From Pseudomonadota bacterium (lineage in GTDB: Bacteria; Pseudomonadota; Gammaproteobacteria; Burkholderiales; REEB80), in NCBI GenBank assembly GCA_028873515.1, contig JAGWIG010000009.1, positions 610-64,609 on the forward strand: a stretch of DNA of 64,000 nt. The letters run 5' to 3'. This document shows, piece after piece, positions 15,794 through 59,259 of this stretch. Position numbers and translations under genes: made by a program. Position 1 is the stretch's first letter. The number at the start of each line of letters is the position of its first letter. The notes beneath the pieces were generated by a model, which worked only from the letters and a program-made list of their open reading frames with translations, did no database searches and had not been told where the DNA came from.

Positions 15794-16663
15794 ATGAAAC
15801 CACTTTTATTGCGATCGTCCTTATATATGCCAGCAGTAAATGTTCGTGCACTTGAAAAAGCCCATAGTCTAGATATAGATGCCATCATTGCAGATCTCGA
15901 AGACGGAGTAGCGTTGATAAAAAAAAATGAGGCCCGTAAGATTGTAGCCGATGCATTTTCAGAAAATTATGGCTTTCGTTTGAAAGTTCTGCGTATTAAT
16001 GGGCCTACTACACCTTATGTAGATGAAGACATACACCTGGCTGCCAAGATAAATCCTGATGCACTATTGTTAACCAAAATCAACACGCCAGATGAACTAA
16101 ATAAAACACTGAAAAAATTAGACGCAATAAGCCACGTTTCATTTCCAGTATGGTTAATGATTGAAACACCGTCAGCCGTAATAAACATTGATAAACTTGC
16201 ACAAAACAGGCGCGTAAAATGCCTTGTTATGGGCACTAATGATTTAGGTTATGCATTGCATTCCCGACATATTCCTGGTCGAATCCCTTTTTTGTATTCA
16301 TTTTCAAAGGTAATTTTAGCTGGACGAGCAAATGGTCTCGCGGTACTGGACGGGGTTTATTCCAATCTGCAAGATTTAGATGGGTTTAAGAATTACTGTA
16401 ACCAAGGAAGAAATCTAGGTTTTGATGGCGTGACACTGATACATCCTTCTCAAGTGGCGATTGCTAACGAAGAATATAGTGTTTCTATCCATGAAATCGA
16501 ATGGGCGCATAAGGTTTGCAAGGCATGGGATGAGGCCCAACGAAAGGGTCAAGGTGTGGCAACCGTAGAAGGTTGGTTTATTGAAAATTTGCATGTAGAT
16601 GAGGCCAAAAGATTATTGGGGCTTGAGACATCCATTCGCAAACGTACATCTGGAAAAATTTAG
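15794..16663 (+). CDS. CitE/HpcH-HpaI family CoA-ester lyase (malyl-CoA lyase-like)
   Basis: RSSLYMP, DLEDGV, MIETP, MGTNDL, GFDG.TLIHPSQ. Confidence 0.9.
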   Translation: MKPLLLRSSLYMPAVNVRALEKAHSLDIDAIIADLEDGVALIKKNEARKIVADAFSENYGFRLKVLRINGPTTPYVDEDIHLAAKINPDALLLTKINTPDELNKTLKKLDAISHVSFPVWLMIETPSAVINIDKLAQNRRVKCLVMGTNDLGYALHSRHIPGRIPFLYSFSKVILAGRANGLAVLDGVYSNLQDLDGFKNYCNQGRNLGFDGVTLIHPSQVAIANEEYSVSIHEIEWAHKVCKAWDEAQRKGQGVATVEGWFIENLHVDEAKRLLGLETSIRKRTSGKI

Positions 16664-43704: not shown

Positions 43705-43800
43705 AATCAACGACTTATAATTCAATAAATCTTGAAAATACCCTAGTAATGGAGTATAAGGGAGCCTAAAGGAGCCTATCGCCACCCAAGAAAAGGTGGC
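43705..43800 (+). promoter_or_regulatory. attL accessory sites: IHF site and putative integrase arm-type repeats
   Basis: AATCAACGACTTA (43705-17) fits IHF consensus WATCAANNNNTTR; 10-bp-period repeats GGAGTATAAG/GGAGCCTAAA/GGAGCCTATC (43751-80); GCCACC...GGTGGC inverted repeat (43781-800). Confidence 0.6.
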
Positions 43801-45266: not shown

Positions 45267-45752
45267 TCACTGATCACAAATCGGGCATATGGTTATGTCC
45301 CGTGGATAGAGTTGGCTGACAATAACTTTCATGGAACAACATCGACATGGAACAAGTTTAAGCTTTTTGGTCCGCATATGGATCGTCAGGTTCCATGCCC
45401 TGTCAAAGGGGATCTGCGCATTAGAGCCGTATATCAAAATATAACTTATATAAGCTCTCAACACCCTTTCCGCTTCCATGTCATCAGGATGCGTTGTACA
45501 CACCTTATCAAAAAGATTAGCAAAGGCACTTGATTGCATGACCATGGGGCCAAGAAAGAATTTTGCATCCCATGGCGATTGGCCGCTTGTGGATGAGCGA
45601 TTTGAAATAAATTTATGCATTTTCCTGGCTCGGGCAATCGATAAGCCCAAGGCTTGGGCAATGGTAGGCGATCTTGCTCCGGCATAAATCATGCGTTCTG
45701 CAATCTTGTATTTTTGGTGATTAAGCTGTTCCATCGTGTTAGTCCTTGGCAA
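45267..45752 (-). CDS. FlhC-family transcriptional activator
   Basis: A..MI.AGAR, G.SP...FF, AY..Y, RAW.L, C-terminal zinc site CRCC...CPIC. Confidence 0.88.
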   Translation of the reverse strand: MPRTNTMEQLNHQKYKIAERMIYAGARSPTIAQALGLSIARARKMHKFISNRSSTSGQSPWDAKFFLGPMVMQSSAFANLFDKVCTTHPDDMEAERVLRAYISYILIYGSNAQIPFDRAWNLTIHMRTKKLKLVPCRCCSMKVIVSQLYPRDITICPICDQ

Positions 45753-46089
45753 TGATCAAGGCACGGACAATTTCATCAATTTTCGCGTTGATATCACCAT
45801 TTTCCTGGTTTGCAACAATTTTTCTCAACAAATCCAAATCATGCAGCCTGGGTGTAAACAACATGATTCCGCGTTGGGCCAGCTTGCATTTGGTTGAATA
45901 GTCGAGGGAGCTATAAACTTCAATCAGCCCTGTCCCGTTGGCTCTGCCAATCAGTGTATTGGCATCATCCACATGCGTCATGGATAAACTGCTCAATGTT
46001 TGCAATCCAACCATGTTGAATTGCGAAACCTGCCGAGATATTGTTTCAATTTGCTGTTTTACTTCACCACTTAATAATGCAGTAACCAT
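45739..46089 (-). CDS. FlhD-like activator subunit
   Basis: 116 aa, overlaps the FlhC-like start; FN...L and KLAQRGIMLFTPRL resemble FlhD N/C motifs. Confidence 0.65.
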   Translation of the reverse strand: MVTALLSGEVKQQIETISRQVSQFNMVGLQTLSSLSMTHVDDANTLIGRANGTGLIEVYSSLDYSTKCKLAQRGIMLFTPRLHDLDLLRKIVANQENGDINAKIDEIVRALIIAKD

Positions 46090-46090
46090 T

Positions 46091-46381
46091 TCAAATATCT
46101 CCCTCGTTACTCAGGTTAATATTGCTAATAGCTTGCAATTTGTCCCGGAAACTCAAAATTGCCTGTTCAATAATCATTCGATTTTTCCAGCCATTCATGG
46201 CTTCTATATCCTTGAGTGCTCGGCTGGCCGCTTCAGACAAAATAACGTGCACATTCTTTCGGCCCTGATTCTGGTATTCATTTAAACGTTGCCTTTCTTT
46301 GGCAGAATCGTATTGCCGAGATTTGGTGGTGCGGCCAGATTCCATTCCACCCAAGGATTCAGGTGGGATGGATGATGTCAT
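46091..46381 (-). CDS. small ribbon-helix-helix-like DNA-binding protein
   Basis: RKNVHVILSEAASRALKDI....GW.NRMIIEQAI: alternating beta-strand followed by two helices. Confidence 0.6.
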   Translation of the reverse strand: MTSSIPPESLGGMESGRTTKSRQYDSAKERQRLNEYQNQGRKNVHVILSEAASRALKDIEAMNGWKNRMIIEQAILSFRDKLQAISNINLSNEGDI

Positions 46382-47361
46382 TTAATTTTCTCGATTGAAT
46401 CGATTACAGCCTTTATCTGGATCGAGTGACTGTTTATTACCTGGAGAATGCTTTTGAATTCACCAATCATTTCTTTGGATAAATCGCCACTCGCAGATAT
46501 CAGGTTGGCTTCCTGTGACCAGGCCAGCACTTCGCTGAGTTTGTTTCGATAATTGATAAGCTTGTCAGTCAACGCACGTTGGCGTTGGCGATCAAGTTTT
46601 TGTTTGGAAATATCGTTTTGAAGTTCATCGCGTTGTTTTGCAAGCTTTGCAATTTCGCTGGAGCAGGTAATTTTTTCTCGTTCAAGGCGTTTGGCCTCTT
46701 CTCTCAGGACTTTAACCTTGTCCTCATCTTCTTTACCGGCATTTTTTAGTCTTTCCAACTCCTTGGATACTTCCTGCAGTCGCGTATGGATTTCAATCCC
46801 TTTTGCAGAAAGCCCATCTATATTCTGGTGTGCAGTGTCGCGTTCCTTTTCAAGTACTTTAATTTGTTCCGTCATTTTCCGAAGCTGGATTTTTACATCG
46901 ACATCCATTTCCTTTATGGCTTCTTCTTTTGCAGCTTCAATTTGTCTGCGTATTTCATCTGCATTAATGCTTTCACCGCTTTCTAATCTTTCGATGGTGG
47001 AATCTAGAACTTCCGCTGGGGCTGTTTCTACCAATTCGTAGAGTATCTTTGCTGGTAAAGCCATATTCTGCATCGGTACATTATGAAATTTTTCGGCTAC
47101 TGCAATATAGCGCTGCATGGAACGACGCGAATATCCAAACTCTGCTTCTGCCCATGTCATGAATTTCTTTTCTGGTAACCGCCGTCTTGCCTCAATCAGT
47201 AAATTGCCAATTTCAATAATGGATTCAGCCACTGATTTATTTAGCGAACGAAGACGATAAGTGATGCTGATGATGTGTTCCCTGTCTTGCACAGGAATGG
47301 AATTGAAATCGAATACCACAAGAGCTGAGTTATTTTCAGTGCTGACGACTGCTTCTTTCAT
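46378..47361 (-). CDS. DUF3102-domain protein with long C-terminal coiled coil
   Basis: IIEIGNLLIEAR..LP...F..W.E.EF.YS.RS.QRYI.VA signature; start at ATG 47361 after GGAGG. Confidence 0.85.
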   Translation of the reverse strand: MKEAVVSTENNSALVVFDFNSIPVQDREHIISITYRLRSLNKSVAESIIEIGNLLIEARRRLPEKKFMTWAEAEFGYSRRSMQRYIAVAEKFHNVPMQNMALPAKILYELVETAPAEVLDSTIERLESGESINADEIRRQIEAAKEEAIKEMDVDVKIQLRKMTEQIKVLEKERDTAHQNIDGLSAKGIEIHTRLQEVSKELERLKNAGKEDEDKVKVLREEAKRLEREKITCSSEIAKLAKQRDELQNDISKQKLDRQRQRALTDKLINYRNKLSEVLAWSQEANLISASGDLSKEMIGEFKSILQVINSHSIQIKAVIDSIEKIK

Positions 47362-47465
47362 ACAACCTCCTTTTGAATATGCCTTAGTGCATTTTGCAAA
47401 AAAATAAGTGCATGAAGCGGATGAATGATGCAAAAAAAAGCGCATCAATCAAAAACTCAAGCTTC

Positions 47466-47581: not shown

Positions 47582-47723
47582 AGCCTAAAACGTGTACACG
47601 TCACCATATAATAAAATCAACAGGTTATCAAAAATTCGTAAAATGGGCACCGTGCCCATTTTTCTATGATAATTGTAACTTATTGATATTATTTGTTTAT
47701 GAAAAATCAGGTATGTACACGTA
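47582..47723. repeat. symmetric IHF/palindrome module, copy 1
   Basis: ACGTGTACACGT (47590-601), AATCAACAGGTTA (47615-27), AAAATGGGCAC-C-GTGCCCATTTT (47640-62), inverted IHF TAACTTATTGATA (47676-88), TGTACACGTA (47714-23). Confidence 0.9.
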
Positions 47724-47807
47724 TCAAGTAATGCTGAATTAAAACGTATTAAATATACAGCGTTTTTCAAAATCATTAATTGTTTTAATGTAACCAGAAT
47801 ATTCGAC

Positions 47808-48938
47808 ATGAATATCCTATCCTTTTTTAATAAAAAACAGGGGTCAATAATTGTCCATGAAGGGAATAAGCCTGGTGTGTCACCTGTTTTGACTGGGCTG
47901 CCTGGTTCGATGCCTCATGATATCCGGTGCGCCCTCGATGAAAAAATAAAAGTTTTGCTGGACACATTAATTGTCGATCGGCCGCTGATTATTGATCCTG
48001 TAAACCTGCTTCTGAAGTGGGTTTCCTATGCCCCACGGTATCAGGACGATGCCAAATACGGCCTTGCCCTGCAATCTGTTGATACAGCCATAGTCGCTTC
48101 TAAAATTGCTGATGGAACATTATTCACTGGGCTTGAGTCCTCTGAAAAGAGAAGAGTGTTAGAACCCCGTTATCGGTATGCGGCATTTATTGCGGGACTT
48201 TTTTCAAACCTGCCCTCCCTGGCCAGTGCCCAGGTCATGAGCGAAGACAAGATATGGTCGCCCATGAATGAGCCTTTGCATGACTTTGTATTACGTAATG
48301 GAGATTTTCATCTTGTCTGGTCTGGGGTAACGCGAGAATCGGCGCTATGGATTGTATCGAGACACATTCCCGAACCGGTAATCAGTTATTTAAATGAGGC
48401 CAATCCATCGATCCTGTTTGAAATGCTGGCTGCCATTGCCCCCGAAAAACCATTATCCCGCCTTCAACAGGTTGTTTCTACTTCTATGGAACGTGTCATC
48501 AGCCAGTATAAATCCCAATCAACCATACCTGTGGACAAACCTGTTGCTCAACAAATTAATCTGGAAAATGTCTCGGCAAAAACAAAAGAAACTCCAACTG
48601 TAAAAGCTGAGCTCATTACTACTCCACACCCAGATAAAAAGGAACAATCCCAATCCGGATTGAAAGCCGAAGATTTATATAAATCAATGGGGGAAGCCAC
48701 GGCTGCACTATTTCAATCCATTGCCGAGGATACTGAAAGAAAACCGGAAGTGGCTGAACAAATCAAGCCTTCAGAATCTGGCATTGCAATACCTCTGGCC
48801 TTGATTGCAGGGTATGGGGTAGTCAAGGCAGTGGTGCTGGATGGATTAAAACGATCGGGAATCATGATAGAGCAAACCAGAACACACATCATCATCAGTC
48901 ATGAAGCATCATCAGTGATTTTCAGGAAATCCAAATAA
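47808..48938 (+). CDS. MOBH/TraI_2-like relaxase homologue with degenerate HD active site
   Basis: F....E.RR.LEPRYRYAAFIAGL, W.P..EPL and EML.AI match MOBH relaxases, but the HHH, H and HD positions read RYQD, Q and SN. Confidence 0.75.
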   Translation: MNILSFFNKKQGSIIVHEGNKPGVSPVLTGLPGSMPHDIRCALDEKIKVLLDTLIVDRPLIIDPVNLLLKWVSYAPRYQDDAKYGLALQSVDTAIVASKIADGTLFTGLESSEKRRVLEPRYRYAAFIAGLFSNLPSLASAQVMSEDKIWSPMNEPLHDFVLRNGDFHLVWSGVTRESALWIVSRHIPEPVISYLNEANPSILFEMLAAIAPEKPLSRLQQVVSTSMERVISQYKSQSTIPVDKPVAQQINLENVSAKTKETPTVKAELITTPHPDKKEQSQSGLKAEDLYKSMGEATAALFQSIAEDTERKPEVAEQIKPSESGIAIPLALIAGYGVVKAVVLDGLKRSGIMIEQTRTHIIISHEASSVIFRKSK

Positions 48939-50773
48939 TGGCCCTTTCCAAATATGCCAACATCTGGCGCATACCGTACGAAGGCTATGCCGCCCTGGCC
49001 TGGCTAGCCGCCAGTGGGCTGACTCTTGTTTTTTATGGAATAGATGATTATACGGCCATGATTATTGCGTTGATTGCTGCAATTGCTGGCATCAGGCGTT
49101 TTTTTCAGGCCAAGCGGTTAATTGAACAAAGAGTCTCTCTCTCTGGAAATGCTGGCATTATAACCATGACTCGTCAGGAACTTTTAAATATATCTTCTTT
49201 GGATCCGGATGGAATGTTTTTGGGATTGGGATGGAAGTGGCAACCAAGACATGCACGTTTATGCAGGGAACTGTTCGCAAAAAATGATGATGAAATGCCA
49301 ACTGTTCCCAAATGGATGCTAAAAATATTCGGTCATACCAGAGCTCCTGAAGAGACAATCGGGAACCCCAGAATTCATGGACTGGAAACACGTGATACCA
49401 ATATTTATGCCATGCTGGAGGCACTAGCTGGCCATACCTTGATTGTTGGCACAACAGGTAGTGGGAAAACCCGTCTTTATGAAGTCCTGGTTACTCAAGC
49501 CATTGCCGCTAACGCAGTGGTTATTTTCATCGATCCAAAAGGCGATCGGGATCTCGAACTACGGATGCGTGATGAATGCAAAAAATCTGGCCGTGATTTT
49601 CTGTTTTTCCATCCTGCATTTCCAAGCAAAAGCATCCGTTTCAATCCTTTGAAAAACTGGCACAGTCCAAGTGAAATTGCTTCCCGCATTGCCCAGCTTC
49701 TTGGTAATGGTGATAACGATAACTTTGTGCAGTTTGCTCACCTGACTATTGATCGGGTTATTAATGGTCTACTTGCCATAGGTGAACGGCCCAGCCTGAG
49801 AAAAATCATGGAGTATGTCCAAATCGGGGTTGATCCGTTGCTGGATAAACTGCTTGATCAATATTTGTTTGAAATATTTGGGTCAGGATGGGAAGGAAAG
49901 CTAACCGGATATCTGCAGGACAAGAAAGCAGGTAATGTCAGTCGTACTGACGCCAAGATTGCACTTTATACCGCTGAAGTAAGAGGGGCAAATCCCAATG
50001 ATGTCATGGATGGGCTGGTTAGTATCTATCACCACAGCAAAGAGCATTACAACAAGATGATCCTGGCTCTACTCCCTTTGCTGCAGCAACTTACCAGTGG
50101 AGAAATTGGGGAAATGCTCTCACCCGAGCATGAAAACATGGATGATCCACGACCCATCTTTGATTCAGAAAAAATCATCAAAGGGGGAAAGGTTTTTTAC
50201 ATGGCAACCAATTCATTGTCAAACAAACAGGTTGCAACCGCCATTACTTCCATTGCCCTTGCTGACTTTGCTGCTGTCGCTGGATCCATTTACAACTTTG
50301 AGGATGCCAAACAAGACATCTATTTGATGGTGGATGAAGCAGGTGAGGGGATTAATGATCAGTTTACACAAATCCTGAATAAAGGTCGTGGGGCAGGGTA
50401 CAAGACTTTTTTTGCTACTCAGACACTATCTGATCTGGAAGTGCGCCTGGGTAGCAAACAAAAGGCCAATCAAACTATCGGCAATGCCAATAACATGATT
50501 TCTTTGCGCCTGCAGGACACCGACACGGCAAAATATATTGCGGATAAATTTGGAGAAACGACCGTTCGCAGTATTAGTGTATCGCAATCGAATCGTGCCG
50601 AATCCGAAGCCAACATGATGGAATTTGGTGGCACGGTAACGAGAGCCATGAAAGAGGAACAGACTGAACTTATGCCCATGAATGTTTTAAAGCGGTTGCC
50701 AAACCTGCAGTTTGTTGCCCTGGTCGCTGGTGGAAATCTATACAAGGGCCGTATCCCAATTATAACCAACTAA
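48938..50773 (+). CDS. traD: type IV coupling protein TraD (SXT/IncC-like)
   Basis: N-terminal TM pair, LGLGWKW, Walker A GTTGSGKT, IDPKGD, FHPAFP..S.R.NPL, Walker B VDEA, NKGRGAG. Confidence 0.92.
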   Translation: MALSKYANIWRIPYEGYAALAWLAASGLTLVFYGIDDYTAMIIALIAAIAGIRRFFQAKRLIEQRVSLSGNAGIITMTRQELLNISSLDPDGMFLGLGWKWQPRHARLCRELFAKNDDEMPTVPKWMLKIFGHTRAPEETIGNPRIHGLETRDTNIYAMLEALAGHTLIVGTTGSGKTRLYEVLVTQAIAANAVVIFIDPKGDRDLELRMRDECKKSGRDFLFFHPAFPSKSIRFNPLKNWHSPSEIASRIAQLLGNGDNDNFVQFAHLTIDRVINGLLAIGERPSLRKIMEYVQIGVDPLLDKLLDQYLFEIFGSGWEGKLTGYLQDKKAGNVSRTDAKIALYTAEVRGANPNDVMDGLVSIYHHSKEHYNKMILALLPLLQQLTSGEIGEMLSPEHENMDDPRPIFDSEKIIKGGKVFYMATNSLSNKQVATAITSIALADFAAVAGSIYNFEDAKQDIYLMVDEAGEGINDQFTQILNKGRGAGYKTFFATQTLSDLEVRLGSKQKANQTIGNANNMISLRLQDTDTAKYIADKFGETTVRSISVSQSNRAESEANMMEFGGTVTRAMKEEQTELMPMNVLKRLPNLQFVALVAGGNLYKGRIPIITN

Positions 50774-50788
50774 TGCTACAGGAAATAC

Positions 50789-51301
50789 ATGATGGAAATT
50801 GATGCTTACCACGAATTAAATAAGGCCATTAAAGCTTCCGGAAGAAAAAAGGAGGCATCGGTGTGGTTCTCTTCATGGCCGAATATCCGGGAATTGGCTA
50901 TGCGTTTAACGGAATACATCCCAATGTGCGTGCCTGACGTTGAAACAGGCAGGCCTCTGCTTGTCCGTTGTATTGAGGAAGCGTTTGATGCAATCAACAT
51001 GGATTGGTTAAACCCGGAAAATGAAAAAAAATTCATATCAGGTTTAATGAAACCCACGCCGTCCATACTTAACCTGCGCATCGGGATAACCCATAATGGT
51101 TGTTTTACTCCATGGAATCCGGCTATTGAATCACTGATGAAATTCATCAACAGCCAACCCGGAGATCTCACCATTATTGAAGAACCATTTTTCGATATGC
51201 CACCTTATGAAGTAAGGATGATTCTGGCATCCAGAATCATGGACATGATTGATATCAACAGAATTGGAATTAAAAATGTCATTTGCGAACAGGATATTTG
51301 A
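50789..51301 (+). CDS. hypothetical protein in the transfer region
   Basis: 170-aa ORF, SD AGGA, co-oriented within the operon; no recognised motif. Confidence 0.7.
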   Translation: MMEIDAYHELNKAIKASGRKKEASVWFSSWPNIRELAMRLTEYIPMCVPDVETGRPLLVRCIEEAFDAINMDWLNPENEKKFISGLMKPTPSILNLRIGITHNGCFTPWNPAIESLMKFINSQPGDLTIIEEPFFDMPPYEVRMILASRIMDMIDINRIGIKNVICEQDI

Positions 51302-51533
51302 AAGGCAGAAGCTGGTAAGCAAACAGGATCTGGATGATGTCATTCAATGCATTAGAGAAAAGAAAGAAGCCAGGGTGCCTGAATGGGCCAGGTCTGATAA
51401 GTTTTCAGCCGTTAAATTTGCGCTGTTATACGCCTCCTTGAAGCGGCCAGTCATATCTATCGGATGTCTGGCTGCAACGGGTTATATTTTCTGCGCGACT
51501 ATCATACAGGCACTGTCCTATTTCATGAGGTGA
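51276..51533 (+). CDS. small hypothetical protein with C-terminal TM helix
   Basis: MSFANRIF...; hydrophobic C-terminus; overlaps the previous ORF and ends 7 nt before DUF4400. Confidence 0.6.
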   Translation: MSFANRIFERQKLVSKQDLDDVIQCIREKKEARVPEWARSDKFSAVKFALLYASLKRPVISIGCLAATGYIFCATIIQALSYFMR

Positions 51534-51540
51534 TTTTTTT

Positions 51541-52194
51541 ATGGCCAGTCCCACCCGTTCAAAGTTTACCAGCCATTTACTACTGTGGATTATATTGTCA
51601 TTTGCAGTTGAGGCCATGGTCATGCCAGCATTGATTAGCCCCGTCAAAGAAATGGCACTTATAAACACTGAAATGAAAATAAACAAGGCGTTTATGGGGA
51701 GAGGGCAGGGCACGATTACAAATCGGGCAACATGGGCTTTCAAAGGTTTGTTCGTCAACAACGGTATCATGGCGAAATCGGCGCATTTCTTCCAACCGTC
51801 TGAAAGTTCTGACGTGCTTGGATTGGGTCGAATCTATAAAGGGATCTCAGCCAAATGGATTGATAATTTCTGGATGTCTGTTTATCTTTTTTTGTATCGC
51901 TTTTTTCTCATGATTTACTGGATTATTCCAGCATCACTGTTTATAGGTGCTGCTGCCGTAGATGGGTTTACCATCTGGCAAATCAAGAAAACTGAATTCG
52001 GTGTCTCCAATCCGATTGCATTCAAGATTGCATCGATGTCTATAGCCCACATTACAGGGTTCATGGTCTTTTTGGGATTTGTCCCTTTGCCCATGCCTCC
52101 ATTTATCTGGCCTTTCTTTACAGCAATGATTGCTTCAAGCGTATGGATAACTGCAGCCAACTTCCAGAGCGGGTTGAGTAGCCCTGGTATCTAA
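51541..52194 (+). CDS. DUF4400 membrane protein (SXT TraJ-like)
   Basis: Y...YR, AA.VDG...W.IKK..F...NP, P.P.PP and C-terminal NFQ pattern; downstream of traD. Confidence 0.8.
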   Translation: MASPTRSKFTSHLLLWIILSFAVEAMVMPALISPVKEMALINTEMKINKAFMGRGQGTITNRATWAFKGLFVNNGIMAKSAHFFQPSESSDVLGLGRIYKGISAKWIDNFWMSVYLFLYRFFLMIYWIIPASLFIGAAAVDGFTIWQIKKTEFGVSNPIAFKIASMSIAHITGFMVFLGFVPLPMPPFIWPFFTAMIASSVWITAANFQSGLSSPGI

Positions 52195-52382
52195 GACTTA
52201 TTCGTTCTGTTCGCCCCTTTTCCATGTATTGGAGATATTCGGGAACGATTCCATTTTGCGTACCATGGTTTACGCAAGCCAATCCAATTTGCTGAAACGA
52301 TAGCCTATCAAGCCTGAAAACTGGCTGTATTACGTCATCATTCAAACTTAATCCATAAAGTCGTCTTCCCATAATTTTGGGC

Positions 52383-53384
52383 ATGAACGGCCTTGATATA
52401 CCTGATGATTCGACCCACGCCGTATTTCTGGATCTGGTCAAAAATATTGTTCCCTATATGGCAGACAAATCTGTCAGTGAAATCATGGTGAACAGGCCTA
52501 ATGATGTATGGATTAAACAAAACGGAAGCCTGGTTAAAGTGGATTGCGACCTTGATGGAATCAGCATTAGAAGCGCCATGCAGGCTTTGGCTCGAATTGA
52601 GCAGAAGGAAATTCAGGAAAATACCGAAGCGGCCATCCTGGATTGCCATATCGGTCCATTCCGGATTGCCTGTGTAATGAGTCCTACCGCCGTAGATGGG
52701 CACGCAATGTGTATCAGGAAGCACTCAAGTTCAAATATGACGCTTGATGATTACAGGGAAAACGGTTTTTTTAATCCACCAGAGACGAATGATAGCGTAA
52801 GCAATGGCAGCCTTGAGCTGTGGGATATTTTAAGGAATGCGGTAAAAAACAAAAAAAACATACTGGTAGCTGGAGGTACTGATACAGGTAAAACCACCAT
52901 GCTTAACGCCTTAATTGCCGAAATACCGGGTTCTGACCGGGTGATTTCGATAGAGGACACGATTGAATTGAATGTACGGGTTCAAAACAAGGTTCGCCTT
53001 CTCTCCAATGCACAGGCCGGCATCCATATGCGGGATTTGTTAAGGCTTTCTTTGAGAATGAGACCGGATCGGATTGTAGTCGGAGAAGTTCGAGGTGAAG
53101 AAGCCTACGATTTGCTTCAGGTTTTTAACAGTGGACATGATGGCGGGTTTGCCACCATTCATGCGTCAAATGGAAAAAAAGCATTGATGCGTCTCGAATC
53201 GCTTGTCATGCAATCCGAAGCCGCAAAAATGGGTTATGAAGCGATCAAGCTGATGGTGGCTTCCACCATCAATTACGTTGTTTTTCTGAAATCTTCGGGT
53301 GGGAAACGCTACCTGTCGGAACTATTGGAAATCACTGATTTTGATGATGGAAAATACGTTATGAATAATCTGGTTAGGAGATAA
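52383..53384 (+). CDS. trbB: VirB11/TrbB traffic ATPase
   Basis: VSEIMVN.P, IRK, GGTDTGKTT, IEDT.EL, LRMRPDRIVVGEVRG, SGHDGG.ATIHA. Confidence 0.92.
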   Translation: MNGLDIPDDSTHAVFLDLVKNIVPYMADKSVSEIMVNRPNDVWIKQNGSLVKVDCDLDGISIRSAMQALARIEQKEIQENTEAAILDCHIGPFRIACVMSPTAVDGHAMCIRKHSSSNMTLDDYRENGFFNPPETNDSVSNGSLELWDILRNAVKNKKNILVAGGTDTGKTTMLNALIAEIPGSDRVISIEDTIELNVRVQNKVRLLSNAQAGIHMRDLLRLSLRMRPDRIVVGEVRGEEAYDLLQVFNSGHDGGFATIHASNGKKALMRLESLVMQSEAAKMGYEAIKLMVASTINYVVFLKSSGGKRYLSELLEITDFDDGKYVMNNLVRR

Positions 53385-53387
53385 AAA

Positions 53388-53672
53388 ATGAACTTTAAAC
53401 GTACCCTGTTCAGCTTGTCGCTACTGTTGTTTTCAAGCTCCGTATTTGCCGTAGGGATGCCATGGGACGGACTGTTATGTGCAATTGTAACGGATTTACG
53501 AAGCACGGTTGCTGCCGCTGTGGCTGTTGTCGCAATAGTCATTGCTGGATTATCTTTCGCGCATTCTGATGCAGACTGGTTCAAGCTTTTAATGGCCGTC
53601 ATCATGGGAATTGGTATTGCTGCGGGGTCAGTGGTTCTTGTATCCATGATGGGTCTGACCTTTACCTGCTGA
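53388..53672 (+). CDS. trbC: TrbC/VirB2 pilin
   Basis: Signal peptide, GMPW motif, two hydrophobic helices. Confidence 0.88.
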   Translation: MNFKRTLFSLSLLLFSSSVFAVGMPWDGLLCAIVTDLRSTVAAAVAVVAIVIAGLSFAHSDADWFKLLMAVIMGIGIAAGSVVLVSMMGLTFTC

Positions 53673-53682
53673 TGGAATCATT

Positions 53683-53988
53683 ATGCGAAAAAACCCGTTT
53701 TACCGCTCCTTGAATTTGGTTGAAACCGCGGGTGGTGCAGAAAAATCATTGGCTGTCCTGAATTTCACCCTGGGGTTGGCTTTTGTGTATGCCACCAAAA
53801 TACTTTGGCTTCCCATCCCTTTTGCGTTCATGCATATATTTTTACGGTGGTTAACCAAAAAAGATCCATTTATCCGGAAAAGCTATATCAAGTACAACCG
53901 CATGTCAGACAGGCTGGATCCGTGGCCTAGCCAGAACATGAAAAAAGCTTGGCGGCCAGAAGGATTTTGCAGGGGAATTATGTGGTAA
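53683..53988 (+). CDS. trbD: TrbD/VirB3
   Basis: YRSLN....GGAE, two TM segments, KKDP. Confidence 0.88.
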   Translation: MRKNPFYRSLNLVETAGGAEKSLAVLNFTLGLAFVYATKILWLPIPFAFMHIFLRWLTKKDPFIRKSYIKYNRMSDRLDPWPSQNMKKAWRPEGFCRGIMW

Positions 53989-56462
53989 ACGCAATCAGGA
54001 TCAAGAAATCACTGGATAAGGATACGCACCCATCATTGAGTGTGGTTCCCTATCTCTGCATGGTTCGCCCGGGAATTATCCTGAACAAGGATGGTTCCCT
54101 CATGGCATGCTTCCAGTTTGACGGACAAGATATTGACAGTATCGGGGAAAACGATCTCGACAGTATATGTGACACGGTTGAGCACTCGCTGAAACTGCTC
54201 AATGAAAGATTTACCTTGTGGTGGACGGTTCGAAGAAGAAAAAGCGCTTCCTATCCTGCTGCTGATTTTGGTGATAATGATATAGCAAAGCTGATTGATG
54301 ACACTCACCAGAAAAACTTTAAACAAGGTTCTCTCTACGAAAACACGCATTACCTGACAATACTGTTTACCCAGTTTTCGGGGATGGATGGATTTTTTGA
54401 ACGCCTGTCCATGCATATGCGAAAAGAAAAGACGAGTGTTATAGGCGCTTTCGCCTCGTCCATACAGGAATCCATTTTCTTGCGTAACCGGTTCCAGTTT
54501 GAAGCCAATCAACTGGATGAGGCCATTACCCAGTTCGAAAATATCATTACCGAATTTTATGCAACCTTGTCTACAGCAAAGTTCAAAAGGCTTGAACTCC
54601 AGGACATGCTGGGATTTCTGAATGCCTGTGTCAATCCGGCTGTGCAGAAACCCCGCCCCGTTGCCATCCCCAGGACTTCCATGCTTGACGCCTACCTTCA
54701 TGACACGACAATCACGATAGGCAGGGAAGCGATGGTTTTTCAGTCTGACAAGGATTATTTTGTTTCTGCTCTTTCCATCAAGGATTATCCAGATATGTCC
54801 CGGGCCGGGATACTGGATTCATTGCTTGCAATCGACGGAGAAATAACCGTTTCTATTGTTTATAAAATTCTTGAACAGGATAAAGCAAGGCATTTTATTG
54901 AAAAAAAGAGAAAACACTTTCTTTTTACTCAAAAATCCCTGATTCAATATGTCAAGGATTCCTTGTTTAAAACCAATTCTGCGCCTGATCCAGGTAAAGC
55001 TTCCATGGCCAAGGAAGCCTCGATAGCATTGGGCAACATCACGGAAGTCAATGCGCATTACGGTTATTTCAATTTTACTTTGTTGTGTGGGGGTGATTCC
55101 ATTGATGAAGTTGAAAATACAATACGCCTTGCTACTGCAGCCATCAATCATCTTGGCTTTATTTCTGTCCGCGAGCGCATAGGCTTGCAGTCAGCCTATC
55201 AGGCTACCATTCCAGGCCAATGGGGCGGTGTGTTCAGGTGGCATCTTGTTTCATCAGCCAATATGGCGGATATGGCGCCAATCAGAACCCTGGATCCCGG
55301 GGAAAAAATCAACCGGTATCTTACGGAACAGCTTGGTTCGGAACAGCATGCCACTTCCATTTTCCATACGCTGTTCAATACACCCTATAGCTTTAATTTT
55401 CATAATGGGGATATTGGGCATTTTCTGGTAATTGGGCCAACCGGTTCCGGCAAAAGTATATTTATCAATTTTCTTATTGCCCAATACCAGAAATACAACC
55501 CCATTACTATTGTCTTTGACAAGGATCGAACCTGTCGTATACCGATCCTGCTGCAGAATGGAAATTACGTCGATATTGATGGTGGAGATATTAAACTTAA
55601 CCCTGTTCGGCTGATTGAGGATAAAAAGCATTGGGCATTTTTAGCCAGGTGGATTGAAATGTTGCTGACCTATCGGGGGTACAGCCTAAGTTCCGGGGAT
55701 GATAAGCAGATTCAGCATGCCATAGAAGGGGTCAGCCGAATGAATCCTGATCTGTGGCGTCTTAGCAGTATCCGTACCCAGCTTTCAGGCGCATTGGGTA
55801 ATGAACTCGATGCATGGGTAGGCAAGGGGCAGTTTTCCCATATATTTGACAATAAGGAGGATGGTTTCAGTCTGGGCTTATTCAATGGAATGGAAATGGG
55901 CGGCTTGATGCTGCGGTTTCCAAAAGCTGCCGGAGCTTTTATGGAGTATGCCTTTTACAGGATTGATCAGGTTGTTGGAAAAGGCCGTCCGGCTTTCATC
56001 TATGTGGAAGAAGCCTGGTTTATGCTTGGCGACCCCGTTTTTGCAAGGCGGCTGGATGACTGGTTAAGGACCTTGCGCAAGAAAAATGCCGTGATTGGCA
56101 TGGCTACCCAGTCCCTTGCTGAAATTGAAAATTCGGATATCTTTTCATCGGTCATTGATAGCATTCCAAACAAGATCTATCTGCCCAATCGTGAAGCCTT
56201 TGCGCATCGCGTCGCATATAAGGAAAAATTTTCCTTAACGGATGATCAAATCAAGAGAATCGTCAGCGCCGAGCCAAAGCGTCATTATTATCTGGTCAAT
56301 TCATCACTTCGGCGCATGCTGGATGTCCCTATGAGCAAGGAGATCCTTGCCTGTTTGCGCTCGGATGTCAAAGCCCAGAATGTTTTTGATCAATATTACC
56401 AGAACAAGGATTCTAATCCGAACTGGAAGTTTGATTACCTAAAGGAGATTGCCCGTGAATAA
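53982..56462 (+). CDS. trbE: TrbE/VirB4 ATPase
   Basis: ILNKDGSL, GH.LVIGPTGSGKS, FDKD, EEAW, WLRTLRKKN...ATQS; GTG start at 53982 likely. Confidence 0.95.
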   Translation: MVNAIRIKKSLDKDTHPSLSVVPYLCMVRPGIILNKDGSLMACFQFDGQDIDSIGENDLDSICDTVEHSLKLLNERFTLWWTVRRRKSASYPAADFGDNDIAKLIDDTHQKNFKQGSLYENTHYLTILFTQFSGMDGFFERLSMHMRKEKTSVIGAFASSIQESIFLRNRFQFEANQLDEAITQFENIITEFYATLSTAKFKRLELQDMLGFLNACVNPAVQKPRPVAIPRTSMLDAYLHDTTITIGREAMVFQSDKDYFVSALSIKDYPDMSRAGILDSLLAIDGEITVSIVYKILEQDKARHFIEKKRKHFLFTQKSLIQYVKDSLFKTNSAPDPGKASMAKEASIALGNITEVNAHYGYFNFTLLCGGDSIDEVENTIRLATAAINHLGFISVRERIGLQSAYQATIPGQWGGVFRWHLVSSANMADMAPIRTLDPGEKINRYLTEQLGSEQHATSIFHTLFNTPYSFNFHNGDIGHFLVIGPTGSGKSIFINFLIAQYQKYNPITIVFDKDRTCRIPILLQNGNYVDIDGGDIKLNPVRLIEDKKHWAFLARWIEMLLTYRGYSLSSGDDKQIQHAIEGVSRMNPDLWRLSSIRTQLSGALGNELDAWVGKGQFSHIFDNKEDGFSLGLFNGMEMGGLMLRFPKAAGAFMEYAFYRIDQVVGKGRPAFIYVEEAWFMLGDPVFARRLDDWLRTLRKKNAVIGMATQSLAEIENSDIFSSVIDSIPNKIYLPNREAFAHRVAYKEKFSLTDDQIKRIVSAEPKRHYYLVNSSLRRMLDVPMSKEILACLRSDVKAQNVFDQYYQNKDSNPNWKFDYLKEIARE

Positions 56463-57240
56463 ACTGGTTAAACATGGCGTTGGAATCATCCTGTCTATCT
56501 ATGCAGGTCTGGCTATTGCTGGTGGGGGTCCTTCAGCGGCAGGTAGCAGCCTGGTTTTTGATCCGACCAATTACATCAAAAATACCCTTACCGCACAAAC
56601 CGCAGTCCAGGAAGAACAGCAACTGGTGCAGCAATATATAACGCAGCTTCAGCAACTGGCATTACAGAAAGCCAATTCGATCGGGTTATCGCAACAGCAG
56701 CTAAATGTTTCCCAAACAGCGTTGCAAAACCAGATCGTTCAATACAGTGACTATAACAATTCGCTCAAAAACCTGTATGGAAGCCTGGGCGGAGCAAACC
56801 AGTACATGAATAATGTCCAGTCCATGGTCAGCGCATCCAACCTGTCCGAACAGGATTGGTATGATCGGGAACAGTCTCTGGCTTCTCAAGGCAATGCCCA
56901 GGCTACAGTCCTGTTTAACCAGGGCCAGTCAGTGATTGGCCAGGTTAATGATGATATGGCGGTTCGTGCCCAGTTGCAGTCCAGCCTGCAAGGCTCGCCT
57001 GGACTCAATAAGACCATGAGTACCACCACGCAATACCTGGATCTGGTGTCAGAGCAGAATGCCCAGGCTTTGCAGATCATGGCAGCAAGAGAACAAAACG
57101 ATGCGGTGAAACAGTCTATCCAGGATTCAAGAGAGAAAGCGGAATCCAGTGCCTATAACCAGCAGATTCAAAAAATGAATCAGGAAAACCAGCAGTACAA
57201 CAATGCCATTCAGAGCAATACCAAGCCATATACTTTTTAA
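56455..57240 (+). CDS. trbJ: TrbJ/VirB5-like protein
   Basis: Signal peptide, VFDPTNY motif, Gln-rich coiled coil. Confidence 0.88.
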   Translation: MNKLVKHGVGIILSIYAGLAIAGGGPSAAGSSLVFDPTNYIKNTLTAQTAVQEEQQLVQQYITQLQQLALQKANSIGLSQQQLNVSQTALQNQIVQYSDYNNSLKNLYGSLGGANQYMNNVQSMVSASNLSEQDWYDREQSLASQGNAQATVLFNQGQSVIGQVNDDMAVRAQLQSSLQGSPGLNKTMSTTTQYLDLVSEQNAQALQIMAAREQNDAVKQSIQDSREKAESSAYNQQIQKMNQENQQYNNAIQSNTKPYTF

Positions 57241-57249
57241 GGGTTAACC

Positions 57250-58269
57250 ATGCGGTATTTTCTTCCTGTTTTAATCCTGATCATCCTGGGCATGATGCCC
57301 ATCAGCCAGGCCATGGCAAACGGATACCCGGATCCATCCCAGATTGCTGGCAATCCAGCCCCAGCCGCGTCCTCATCTTCTACAACCACACAGGGTCAGA
57401 ATCCGCAGCTTGAGGCCAATACGGTGATCAAAGAACTGGACAAGCTGGAAACCAATAGTGTGTTTACGCAAGCTTACGCGCTTGCGGCGAAAATGATGCC
57501 TACCGCGACTAAAATGCTGGGATTGCTTTCCGTGCTGATTATAACTCTGGCCGGAATAAGATTTGCCTTTACGGACAATCCAAACATCATCTTTGGAGAA
57601 TTGATCAGTAACATCCTTCAAATCGGTCTGTTCTCATTTCTACTTTTTAACTACCCCTTATTCATAGAGAACCTGAACTGGCTGTTTGAAACGTTACGAA
57701 CCGTAGTCAATGCAAATTTTGAGGTGGCATGGCAAGCCATTGTTGGTACTTCAGTAACCGCGTTTAATGAAGCGATGAGCTTACATTTTCCATCCATCTG
57801 GATGCATCCGTCGCTGTGGTTTAACATGGCCATGACAGCCAGTATTTCCTTGCTGTCTTCCCTGGCCATGCTATTTACGGGGCTGCTCTTTGTGCTCTAC
57901 TGGTTTTTAAGTGATGCGCTTGCGGCTATCGCCATTGCCCTGGGACCTATATTTGTCTCAGTGGGCGTATGGGATGTCACCAAAGGCTTTTTTGAATCCT
58001 GGCTGGGTTTTTTTGTAAGCGCATTGGGGTACAAGCTCATTGCTGGCGTCATGATTAGCCTGATGAGCCAGACCATCCTTAGTTCATTTACAGCAGATGC
58101 AGGCCACGCATCACCTGGAACAGCAGTGGGATCCCTGATCATGTCTGTGGCGTTTTCATATGTATTCATGCAGACGCCGAAAATCGCCTCAGCTTTATTT
58201 GGCGGGATAGCAGTCGGGGAATTCAAGATACCCAAAATGCCGGGTCCTAAAACACCTCCACCAGCCTAA
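57250..58269 (+). CDS. trbL: TrbL/VirB6 polytopic membrane protein
   Basis: Multiple TM helices, GPIF....W..T..FF..W, P.IA..L.GG. Confidence 0.88.
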   Translation: MRYFLPVLILIILGMMPISQAMANGYPDPSQIAGNPAPAASSSSTTTQGQNPQLEANTVIKELDKLETNSVFTQAYALAAKMMPTATKMLGLLSVLIITLAGIRFAFTDNPNIIFGELISNILQIGLFSFLLFNYPLFIENLNWLFETLRTVVNANFEVAWQAIVGTSVTAFNEAMSLHFPSIWMHPSLWFNMAMTASISLLSSLAMLFTGLLFVLYWFLSDALAAIAIALGPIFVSVGVWDVTKGFFESWLGFFVSALGYKLIAGVMISLMSQTILSSFTADAGHASPGTAVGSLIMSVAFSYVFMQTPKIASALFGGIAVGEFKIPKMPGPKTPPPA

Positions 58270-58394
58270 AACGTGTACACGTCATGGCTTAATAAAATCA
58301 GCATGTTATAAAAATAACCGGAAATGGGCACGGTGCCCATTTTCTATAAATCACGTAACTCATTGAAAACAATAATGCCAGTTTTGTACACGTA
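58263..58394. repeat. symmetric IHF/palindrome module, copy 2
   Basis: First 22 bp AGCCTAAAACGTGTACACGTCA identical to copy 1; AATCAGCATGTTA (58296-308); AAATGGGCAC-G-GTGCCCATTT (58322-42); TAACTCATTGAAA (58356-68); TGTACACGTA (58385-94). Confidence 0.9.
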
Positions 58395-58557
58395 TTGATA
58401 TTAGCTGCCTCTTTCATCTTAGATTATTCCGGACTTGTACCAACAATTTATTTGGTTCAAGTCTGAAAACTAGTTAAAAAATTTGACTATTCAAAAAATT
58501 TAGTGGCATGGATACCCCCAAAATAACTGGGACACATCAATCTGGAGTAGGTTTGCC

Positions 58558-59259
58558 GTGAAGTTTCCAGGAATAAAGCACAAAGATAATTTATCTCCGA
58601 TCCCACATGAGAATATTGGAGAAGGTAAAAAAGAATGGTTTGAAGCTTTTGGTGCGCCTACTGTCAATGCAAACAGATGGTTCTTGATTTCCATGGCTCT
58701 TGCAGTCTGTCTTGTCGCCTTGTCTATTGCCTTTGCCCACCTGTTCCCCCTTAAAACCGTGGTTCCCTATATTGTGAGTGTGGATCAAAGTGGGTATGTT
58801 TCAGCCGATTCGGCTACAGCACAACATTACGTGCCAGGAGAAGCTGAAAAACGTTACTTCCTTGCAAAATGGGTCAGGGATTTATATACGATAGACAATA
58901 CCCTGACCGTGCAGTACCTCAAGGATGACTATTCTGTAACGATGGATAAGGCCATCCCTGAATTCAAGGATTTCATGCACCAGGACAATCCTCTCCAGCA
59001 ATTATCGGATAATCCGCAAACCATCCGAACCGTCACCATTAATTCTGTTTCTTTTGTCTCAAGCAGTACGGCCTTAATCAGGTTTGTCACTGAAAAACGG
59101 AACGCCGACGGTTCACTGTCCAATCGCACAATGCGACTTGCAGCCATAGATTTCAAGATTATTCCCCCTACCACGGCACAGGAAATCCTTACCAATCCGA
59201 TTGGTCTTTTTATCGATAACTTCGACATTACCGACGATACCAATTCAACAGGAGATTAG
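58558..59259 (+). CDS. trbF: TrbF/VirB8
   Basis: W.E.FG, TM helix, PLKTVVPYIVSVD..G, C-terminal NPIGLFI..F. Confidence 0.9.
   Translation: MKFPGIKHKDNLSPIPHENIGEGKKEWFEAFGAPTVNANRWFLISMALAVCLVALSIAFAHLFPLKTVVPYIVSVDQSGYVSADSATAQHYVPGEAEKRYFLAKWVRDLYTIDNTLTVQYLKDDYSVTMDKAIPEFKDFMHQDNPLQQLSDNPQTIRTVTINSVSFVSSSTALIRFVTEKRNADGSLSNRTMRLAAIDFKIIPPTTAQEILTNPIGLFIDNFDITDDTNSTGD

Follow-up and report, generated by a model that had tools for sequence, protein, structure and literature searches.

Two non-coding modules of similar sequence lie 10.7 kb apart in an integrative and conjugative element (ICE) of a Pseudomonadota bacterium of the order Burkholderiales (REEB80), which raises the question of whether they work as a pair on the DNA between them. 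The window, by which we mean the whole 64,000-nucleotide stretch that was analyzed, comprises positions 610 to 64,609 of the forward strand of contig JAGWIG010000009.1 in GenBank assembly GCA_028873515.1. An initial annotation, made from the letters of the window, had read the modules as twin nucleoprotein sites folded by integration host factor (IHF) that bracket the block from a relaxase gene to trbL and that might serve as operators, centromere-like sites, or recombination sites. Judging from the sequences compared here, the two modules are very probably members of a family of protein-binding modules that was duplicated as a unit and is maintained by selection, and not a functional twin bracket.

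The basic description of the two modules, which we term m1 and m2, was upheld by sequence checks. Their first 22 bp, AGCCTAAAACGTGTACACGTCA, are the same letter for letter at 47582-47603 and 58263-58284, and outer palindrome, IHF-like sites, and central palindrome are shared at an offset of 10,681 bp. A repeat search of the window gave a single 84-nt direct repeat with 81% identity whose starts are also 10,681 bp apart. When up to 3 mismatches were allowed, AATGGGCACNGTGCCCATT matched the window twice against 0.03 expected, a count reached in none of 100 shuffles. The outer palindrome ACGTGTACACGT occurs exactly twice in the window, each time within a module, and has 3 matches against 0.90 expected when up to 2 mismatches are allowed. 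The IHF consensus WATCAANNNNTTR is perfect in both arms of m1 at mirror positions, whereas the arms of m2, to which the same sites had been assigned, carry versions with one mismatch each at the same offsets as in m1. The parts of the two modules, both of which belong to the class that we call A, are listed below, with distances taken from the centre base of the central palindrome (the dyad).

47585-47726, + strand: m1 as a whole, class A (nhmmer E 7.6e-36; covariance model R1 130.8 bits, C132:48194-48335)
47590-47601, unstranded: m1 left outer palindrome ACGTGTACACGT with the conserved 9-mer ACGTGTACA; the left 9-mer is identical in all five class A copies
47615-47627, + strand: m1 left IHF-consensus match AATCAACAGGTTA, with ATCA beginning at 35 bp from the dyad centre
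47640-47662, unstranded: m1 central palindrome AAAATGGGCACCGTGCCCATTTT, a terminator-like hairpin (10-pair stem, loop of 3; -12.6 to -13.8 kcal/mol)
47676-47688, - strand: m1 right IHF-consensus match TATCAATAAGTTA, inverted (consensus scan and geometry)
47714-47722, unstranded: m1 right outer 9-mer TGTACACGT; TGTACA centre 65.5 bp from the dyad centre (long arm)
58266-58397, + strand: m2 as a whole, class A (nhmmer E 4.6e-31; R1 128.4 bits, C132:58875-59006)
58271-58282, unstranded: m2 left outer palindrome ACGTGTACACGT, exact match
58296-58308, + strand: m2 left IHF-like site AATCAGCATGTTA, one mismatch to the consensus
58322-58342, unstranded: m2 central palindrome AAATGGGCACGGTGCCCATTT (-15.4 kcal/mol)
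58356-58368, - strand: m2 right IHF-like site, reading TAACTCATTGAAA on the + strand, one mismatch
58385-58393, unstranded: m2 right outer 9-mer TGTACACGT; TGTACA centre 55.5 bp from the dyad centre

The wider motif search that the initial annotation had proposed, run across the genome, returned seven copies rather than two. The exact central palindrome occurs five times in the genome, and in all five cases the full architecture is present on both arms. An nhmmer profile built from these five added two diverged copies, and covariance model R1 gave 14 genome matches, which are the same seven loci on both strands and nothing else. The family thus consists of five class A copies (m1 to m5) and two class B copies (m6 and m7), with unit lengths of 131-143 bp. 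The copies on other contigs are as follows.

Contig C167: m3, class A; starts 7 bp past the stop of an Integrase_1-family gene and overlaps a convergent ATP-grasp gene at that gene's 3' end
Contig C181: m4, class A; between a 369-aa open reading frame (ORF) and a divergent type IV CRISPR-Cas operon
Contig C241: m5, class A; upstream of a Rha/Bro-N-ParM-like (PRTRC protein D) gene
Contig C145: m6, class B; near a Fic gene and downstream of a gene's 3' end
Contig C118: m7, class B; between a HigBA-like toxin-antitoxin pair and a convergent AHSA1-family gene

All seven copies are intergenic and adjoin mobile-element or accessory genes, in positions 5' of genes, 3' of genes, and between cistrons: m1, m4, and m5 lie upstream of divergent genes, while m3 and m7 lie between convergent ones. 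Three copies have segregation-type gene neighbours, namely the DUF3102 coiled-coil gene at m1, the ParM/PRTRC-D-like gene 233 bp from m5, and a ParB-like gene on C167 at 1.26 kb from m3. The two copies in the window share an orientation and so form direct repeats. Because m1 and m2 are only two of seven dispersed copies, they do not specially mark the 10.7-kb block, and the proposal of a functional pair bracketing the relaxase-to-trbL genes was not borne out. According to the covariance model, the second Trb-type gene set of the genome (on C212) and a second relaxase/coupling-protein locus (on C55) are free of the module. An outer-palindrome near-match ahead of the second trbF on C212 stands isolated and was rejected as a module.

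Some of the surrounding genes deserve a description of their own. The operon beside m4 (C181:20319-26362) is a type IV-like CRISPR-Cas operon encoding Cas6-type, Csf3-like, RAMP, and DinG-type helicase proteins next to a Cas1-like gene. A CRISPR array with repeats of about 28 nt begins at C181:26698, and the same repeat ends C167 in reversed form (C167:17554-18444); this repeat is unrelated to the central palindrome, and a link between module and array was therefore discarded. The gene near m5 (C241:2-1606, minus strand) encodes a 535-aa protein in which phage Rha and Bro-N DNA-binding domains are joined to an actin-like ParM/PRTRC protein D domain, an unusual fusion. The Trb-type set on C212 falls into two blocks with about 27 kb between them, and C55 encodes a second MobH-like relaxase together with a coupling protein. 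Matches to Y1 (IS200/IS605-type) transposases occur at 18 places in the genome (for example, C167:1062-1424, C55:23522-23884, and C212:103-468), several of them at contig ends and on contigs with mobile genes; the one on C167 has an in-frame TAG.

The seven copies share a strict two-fold geometry. Each presents, in order, an outer 9-mer ACRTGTACA, an IHF-type site, a central palindrome of 21-23 bp, an inverted IHF-type site, and an inverted 9-mer. The centre of the left TGTACA is 55.5 bp from the dyad in six of the seven copies and 56.5 bp in the other. Its right counterpart is at 55.5-56.5 bp in four copies and at 65.5-66.5 bp in three, a difference of 10-11 bp or about one helical turn. On both sides of every copy, an IHF-like site is found 34-36 bp from the dyad; within it, all seven copies keep TCA-N5-TTR on the left arm, and all seven keep the complement YAA-N5-TGA on the right. 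By eye, the full consensus is present on the left arm of m1, m5, m6, and m7 and on the right arm of m1, m4, and m7, with one or two mismatches on the other arms.

Conservation follows these blocks closely. Mean pairwise identity within class A was 1.00 and 0.91 for the outer 9-mers, 0.92 for the centre, and 0.77 and 0.75 for the IHF-like blocks, against 0.35-0.56 for the four spacers, which appears close to the level of unrelated sequence for A/T-rich DNA. The spacers have nonetheless kept their lengths save for single-base shifts and the 10-11-bp arm difference, so that motifs and spacing held while spacer letters diverged, as had been suggested for the first two copies and as now holds for all seven. 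Because blocks in a fixed order and spacing cannot arise seven times, the unit must have been copied whole. Diverged spacers beside near-perfect blocks imply either that each copy has been under selection where it stands or that all copies descended very recently from master copies under strong constraint, and the pattern makes selection in place appear the more likely of the two.

The nature of the conserved changes suggests what is read. The class A stems have no variable position among the five copies; since a hairpin would tolerate compensated changes, it is probably the sequence that is read and not just the pairing. Across 31 column pairs, 92.6% of cells are complementary between the arms; sliding the partner columns by 1-3 positions lowers this value to 24.8-52.3%. 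Between class A and class B, three pairs changed on both sides (columns 11/141, 64/78, and 65/77). The centre went from ATGGGCAC to AGTGGCAC, mirrored in the other arm, and the outer 9-mer went from ACGTGTACA to ACATGTACA, also mirrored, and central and outer sites have therefore both switched symmetrically. Such a switch in both kinds of palindrome would fit two cognate sets of proteins. The central CACCGTG of m1 and CACGGTG of m2, described earlier as reverse complements of each other, do differ, but the difference is that of the lone unpaired base at the palindrome centre, which in module orientation is C in six of the seven copies and G in m2 only. Together, the conserved blocks and spacing, the symmetric class changes, and the helical-turn variant of the arm support a structured protein-DNA site as the probable nature of the module, in keeping with the initial annotation on this point, although not as a twin bracket.

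Predicted folding adds to this picture. The spacers are not predicted to pair (RNAalifold covariation term, 0.02), and this result together with the invariant stems points to two-fold symmetric proteins reading duplex DNA rather than to an RNA or single-strand fold. The whole module can be folded into a long imperfect hairpin (z-scores of -4.71 and -4.74), and the central hairpins range from -12.6 to -15.4 kcal/mol (z-scores of -3.3 to -4.2). In both m1 and m2 the central palindrome was predicted to be terminator-like on the minus strand, and the plus strand has 4-5 T. Promoter-like sites numbered 6 against 2.5 expected around m1 and 0 against 1.4 around m2, and the start codons closest to the modules lie 85-260 bp away. 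Neither inspection by eye nor the promoter scan revealed a conserved -10 element at constant spacing on the long-arm side. An Rfam search returned nothing under E = 0.6, the two listed matches being snoRNA families at E values of 0.61 and 0.85. The genome encodes three HU/IHF-family proteins.

Within the ICE, m1 and m2 occupy the positions first described for them: m1 separates the divergent DUF3102 and relaxase genes, and m2 lies over the trbL stop ahead of trbF. The genes that define this setting are the following.

45267-45752, - strand: FlhC-like regulator gene (PF05280, 3.9e-14; NF009365)
46378-47448, - strand: gene for a DUF3102 protein with a long coiled-coil tail (Pfam PF11300; weak SMC-like coiled-coil matches; orthologues in L149 and L151, two of the relatives described below)
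47808-48938, + strand: short TraI_2/MobH-type relaxase gene, which opens the bracketed block (PF07514; 24-31% identity to annotated MobH relaxases)
57250-58269, + strand: trbL (VirB6-like), the last gene of the block (PF04610; stop within the conserved left edge of m2)
58558-59259, + strand: trbF (VirB8-like), the first gene past m2 (PF04335, 1.3e-37)

The ICE begins past a tRNA-Cys gene. Its minus strand carries genes for an integrase, an HTH_17 protein, the FlhC-like regulator, a 116-aa ORF (45739-46089) that overlaps and precedes the FlhC-like gene, a 96-aa ORF, and the DUF3102 protein, whose start codon is 142 bp from the left outer palindrome of m1. On the plus strand, the relaxase gene is followed by those for a coupling protein, DUF4400, TrbB, TrbC, TrbD, TrbE, a 263-aa ORF, and TrbL. 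The 263-aa ORF is in the TrbJ position and has no Pfam match, and it aligns with ORFs at the same place in the relatives. TrbF, TrbG, TrbI, and a transglycosylase come after m2, and a type IV pilus cluster runs on to the contig end. Most of the gene labels first given to the ICE hold in Pfam searches. Searches of Pfam, NCBIfam, and PDB sequences did not support the labels of ribbon-helix-helix (RHH) and FlhD-like protein for the 96-aa and 116-aa ORFs, and PDB sequence searches with the 96-aa, 116-aa, and DUF3102 proteins gave nothing meaningful.

The element as a whole (window 43848-64000 plus C132:64000-78388) joins a 376-aa TraI_2/MobH-type relaxase, a TraD/TraG-type coupling protein, and DUF4400 with a Trb-type (TrbBCDEJLFGI) secretion system and a pilus cluster encoding a secretin, PilB-like, PilC-like, and PilT-like proteins, and a pilin. 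The nearest plasmid matches of its relaxase and TrbL are merely 24-31% identical. A perfect IHF-consensus match, AATCAACGACTTA, is present at 43705-43717, 5 bp past the tRNA-Cys gene and ahead of the ICE integrase gene, and is possibly part of the ICE attachment site.

We compared the element with its relatives. A relaxase profile run against 400 genomes of the order identified three syntenic ICE relatives, L149 (G052:C3), L150, and L151, in which the genes from relaxase and coupling protein through the Trb set keep the same order at 24-53% amino-acid identity. The shared run reaches TrbG in L150, where the fetched locus ends, and the transglycosylase otherwise; TrbL was not detected in L151. 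In all three, the matching gaps contain neither the module nor a repeated analogue, and no module was found elsewhere in their genomes. The trbL-trbF gap is 67 bp in L149 and 59 bp in L150 against 288 bp here, which makes m2 look like an insertion into an otherwise tight operon. A divergent DUF3102 gene is present in L149 and L151, and L149 also has an FlhC-like gene. That the relatives keep these orthologues without the module argues against a conserved operator of the DUF3102 or FlhC-like proteins, one of the functions suggested in the initial annotation. The relaxase/DUF3102 gap of L149 (15827-16427) contains a LexA-box-like CTGTATATTCTTACAG in an A/T-rich stretch as well as a perfect tandem repeat of 28 nt (16362-16417) that directly precedes the DUF3102 gene, indicating that its control region is built differently.

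The relative in genome G052 also bears on the other copies. Homologues of both the integrase gene beside m3 and the ParM-like gene beside m5 are on the ICE contig of G052, and this co-location suggests that C167 and C241 are likely part of the same ICE as m1 and m2. C167 ends in the CRISPR repeat of the C181 array.

Searches beyond these relatives recovered no further member of the family. The exact palindrome occurred in three stretches among 185,579 species genomes, none of them module-like: one was coding, and two were tRNA-flanking repeats of a single genome. In that unrelated genome (L009 5990-6080 and L010 4780-4870), the same 19-bp palindrome directly follows a tRNA-like 3' end and is in turn followed by three GTGCCCAT direct repeats, with two copies on one contig, an arrangement that resembles an integrase attachment region. 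The composite pattern gave 0/400 in genomes of the order, one match in viral contigs that fell within a coding region, and 87 stretches in metagenome contigs, of which the 80 listed were examined and none had AAAT/ATTT flanks or an A/T-rich setting; the sole two-armed match among those listed (L113) was G+C-rich with other flanks. A loose palindrome pattern in 60 relatives gave only noise. Covariance model R1 found no copy in five chosen genomes or in 150 genomes of the order (22 candidates scored per genome), and module DNA had no match in plasmids. The two closest genomes are module-free, and an empty-site search in them found no shared flanks at the copies. For the ICE relaxase, the protein database gave one protein at 42% identity beyond itself, and viral and metagenome contigs gave no relatives. 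In the literature searched, the five motif strings turned up in 6 papers, all of them unrelated. Among everything searched, the family was found in this genome alone.

What might such a unit do? We tentatively favour a dispersed, class-specific operator or anchor that is folded by IHF-type bends and whose output is transcription control or insulation. Complete copies of the unit entered non-coding gaps of the ICE and of other accessory DNA. On duplex DNA, a pair of IHF/HU-type bends, each about 30-35 bp from the dyad, would bring the outer 9-mers beside the central palindrome, and class-specific, element-encoded dimeric proteins would hold the folded complex together. Most likely, the complex would control or insulate transcription at the borders of operons in mobile DNA, to which the terminator-like centre could add a transcription block, and the complex would not be aimed specifically at the 10.7-kb block. 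Candidate binders by gene are the ParB-like protein on C167, the DUF3102 coiled-coil protein, and the Rha/Bro-N-ParM-like protein.

We chose the operator or anchor reading because of the apparent per-locus selection, the restriction to accessory DNA, the nearby segregation and regulation genes, and the precedent of KorB and KorA. On IncP-1 plasmids (RK2/RP4), the palindromic operators of KorB (OB) and KorA (OA) are dispersed over the plasmid, including tra and trb, and phage N15 has dispersed centromere sites. As in these systems, palindromic sites are repeated here over one mobile element, some at promoters and others between operons or at a distance from promoters. Among the five class A copies, the same palindromic site stands at promoter and non-promoter places alike; two of these copies are on the ICE contig, and m3 and m5 adjoin genes whose homologues share the ICE contig of G052. 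The ICE-linked contigs likewise encode ParB-like, ParM-like, and coiled-coil KfrA-style proteins. Unlike OB and OA, which are single 12-13 bp sites without IHF at a fixed distance, the site here is a 135-bp unit of five blocks, and its homology over the whole length between copies means that it was copied.

Several observations weigh against this reading. There is no obvious promoter for m3 and m7, which are at the 3' ends of convergent genes, or for m6, which is past a 3' end, and the promoter scan around m1 and m2 found no conserved sigma-70 promoter within the modules. A unit of about 135 bp that is copied whole behaves like a mobile repeat, and the dispersed operators of known systems, at 13-20 bp, are short and originate where they stand. 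The relatives have orthologous regulators without any repeated module in the sequences compared, and the class B copies adjoin no recognizable paralogue of the ICE regulators; tblastn of the genome with the HTH_17, FlhC, 116-aa, 96-aa, and DUF3102 proteins gave zero matches beyond the ICE region of the window. The IHF consensus is low in information (the window has 11 matches where 5.64 would be expected) and is thus weak by itself. The one-turn variant of the arm fits proteins kept on one face of the helix but may represent perhaps one or two events.

A more far-reaching version, which we regard as doubtful, is that the modules belong to an undescribed class-specific nucleoprotein system of mobile DNA in which the two IHF bends of a two-fold symmetric, folded operator would clamp the distal 9-mers onto the centre and element-encoded binders of at least two specificities would coexist in a cell. 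Such a system would combine operon silencing or insulation with marking of the element's DNA for segregation or for self/non-self recognition between co-resident elements, and its site would spread as a portable 135-bp cassette.

Whether as an operator or as a repeat, the module has counterparts among intergenic mosaic repeats that contain an IHF site, such as BIME-1/RIB (RIP) of E. coli and the Correia element (NEMIS) of Neisseria. Like these, it is intergenic, roughly two-fold symmetric, within 100-160 bp, provided with IHF-like sequence, able to fold as long hairpins, lineage-specific, and often at 3' ends or between genes. BIME-1/RIB, however, has one IHF site between two palindromic units, whereas two IHF-type sites flank a central palindrome here; and there are 7 copies rather than tens to hundreds, restricted to accessory and mobile DNA, with a strong contrast between blocks and spacers. 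We found no TA duplication, repetitive extragenic palindromic (REP) sequence, or linked RAYT gene at the modules. Membership in BIME-1/RIB was rejected on layout and copy number.

The alternative that survives best, although we consider it unlikely, is a selfish non-autonomous element resembling a miniature inverted-repeat transposable element (MITE), in which the outer 9-mers would be transposase-bound ends and the conservation would reflect what movement requires. IHF-type sites about 20-25 bp inside each end might then help assemble the transposition complex, by analogy with the ends of IS10/Tn10, Tn1000, and Tn4652, where IHF sites aid this complex. The unit is indeed small, multi-copy, and without coding capacity and has inverted termini of 9-14 bp (ACRTGTACA/TGTACAYGT, with A/T-rich extensions to 14 bp in m7). 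Seven copies in two subfamilies, confinement to one genome, heterogeneous positions relative to genes, the insertion-like gain of m2 relative to module-free syntenic relatives, and the many transposases of the genome, such as the 18 Y1_Tnp matches, are also what a MITE would show. However, comparison of flanks by eye gave no consistent target-site duplication at the seven copies, and no longer parent element was found: inverted ACRTGTACA pairs 60-5000 bp apart occur solely in modules (five of them), with outer 9-mers numbering 22 forward and 14 reverse genome-wide against about 26 expected per strand. Because the assembly is in 275 contigs, a collapsed insertion sequence could be missed in this search. 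Diverged spacers with near-perfect blocks in every copy fit per-locus selection more readily than they fit decay of inserted copies, and a simple transposon-end model assigns no function to the invariant central palindrome. The low copy number and the restriction to accessory DNA also count against such an element.

Site-specific recombination, which the initial annotation had raised as inversion or deletion of the relaxase-to-trbL block, appears improbable. In this model, a tyrosine recombinase would invert, delete, or swap DNA between pairs of sites of lambda-attP design, each with a core whose two arms surround a 7-bp CACSGTG overlap and with the outer 9-mers as arm-type sites. The order arm-IHF-core-IHF-arm and its distances match an intasome layout in form, and lambda attP follows the same folding logic of a core with inverted sites, IHF bends, and distal arm sites tens of base pairs away. 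Further points in its favour are the start of m3 7 bp past the stop of an Integrase_1-family tyrosine recombinase gene, class changes that fall in the presumed core arms and leave the central 7 bp untouched, the inverted centre base of m2 alone, and cassette-type neighbours (toxin-antitoxin, Fic, and CRISPR-Cas). The arms of lambda attP, however, are not mirror images and occur at one site per element, and neither recombination products nor a conserved link to an integrase was found here. No recombinant joint was present in contigs of four DNA runs, three of which cover the stretch, although contigs drop rare forms; loose contig ends at 47690 and 58267 proved to be flanks of m4 and m3. Homologues of the integrase occur in 15 of 400 other genomes, and none of 10 loci examined has a downstream module; the homologue in G052 shares a contig with the related ICE and is still module-free. 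An integrase adjoins the module at m3 only, recombination between the direct repeats m1 and m2 would delete the relaxase gene and half of the type IV secretion genes, and a fully palindromic core would give the reaction no direction. With a perfect palindrome around a 1-bp centre, an overlap region cannot be defined.

A role in conjugative DNA processing seems no more probable, whether as an origin of transfer (oriT) with mimic copies on mobilisable islands or as a hairpin for single-strand priming or initiation that would help turn the transferred strand into duplex. The suggestion comes from the position of m1 directly upstream of the MobH-type relaxase gene and from a resemblance to published origins: two papers describe the IncA/C oriT as an AT-rich stretch, some 150 bp long, that has several inverted repeats and adjoins a relaxosome gene, and cite dual oriTs for ICEclc (PMC5587640; PMC6561031). 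The long imperfect hairpin of the whole module, the shared orientation of m1 and m2, and the confinement of all copies to accessory, possibly transferable DNA are in line with it. Seven origins per genome, one of them inside a trb operon, would nevertheless be unlike known systems, and only m1 adjoins a relaxase gene, while the second relaxase locus and second Trb cluster have no module. Known origins are asymmetric around the nick, but the module is two-fold symmetric, and unpaired spacers with invariant class A stems imply sequence reading rather than the folding that a priming hairpin needs.

It is very improbable that the modules are boxes of the SetCD/AcaCD type through which an FlhDC-like activator of the ICE would turn on the transfer operons. 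The ICE does encode a MobH-type relaxase and an FlhC-like protein whose gene is overlapped on its upstream side by the 116-aa ORF, and m1 and m2 precede the relaxase gene and trbF, respectively. In a study of SXT/R391 ICEs, SetCD is described as binding a 19-bp box by the -35 element of about ten promoters, and the elements concerned share with ours a MobH-type relaxase, an FlhC-like regulator, and a repeated motif ahead of transfer operons (PMC4344509). The box so described is a single 19-bp site just upstream of -35 (PMC4344509), whereas the modules are symmetric units of 131-143 bp that also occur at gene 3' ends, as with m3 and m7, and outside transfer operons. In addition, L149 has an FlhC-like gene, but its matching gaps show no repeated box, whatever the sequence, and the distances of the modules to start codons and the lack of a -10 element at a fixed distance, both noted above, do not fit such boxes.

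Least probable of all are plain bidirectional intrinsic terminators or insulators, or an RNA-level structure, on a duplicated stretch: the centre is terminator-like and stable in both modules, m3 and m7 lie between convergent genes, and m2 is just past the trbL stop, but the T runs are short (3-5), termination needs pairing rather than the invariant class A stem sequence seen beside diverged spacers, the outer 9-mers and fixed-distance IHF-like sites are left unexplained, a terminator would be useless upstream of the divergent genes at m1, m4, and m5, and the Rfam result gives an RNA structure no support.

The comparisons made here characterize the element as what seems to be either an intergenic mosaic repeat or a dispersed operator with an unusually strict two-fold geometry and two specificity classes. 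If it is an ordinary miniature transposon, its value would be smaller, that of a new repeat family, together with a caution that symmetric, regulatory-looking modules of ICEs need a genome-wide copy count before they are read as pairs. If the module is bound as we infer, it would provide a compact natural case of regulation or anchoring by DNA folding, one that combines three palindromic sites with a pair of host-factor bends and a spacing that is kept to the base pair. The presence of two specificity classes in one genome would then be a ready-made experiment on the co-evolution of protein and DNA specificity. If true, it would also mean that a whole composite control site can enter a conjugative backbone as a cassette, even well inside a trb operon that relatives keep unbroken.

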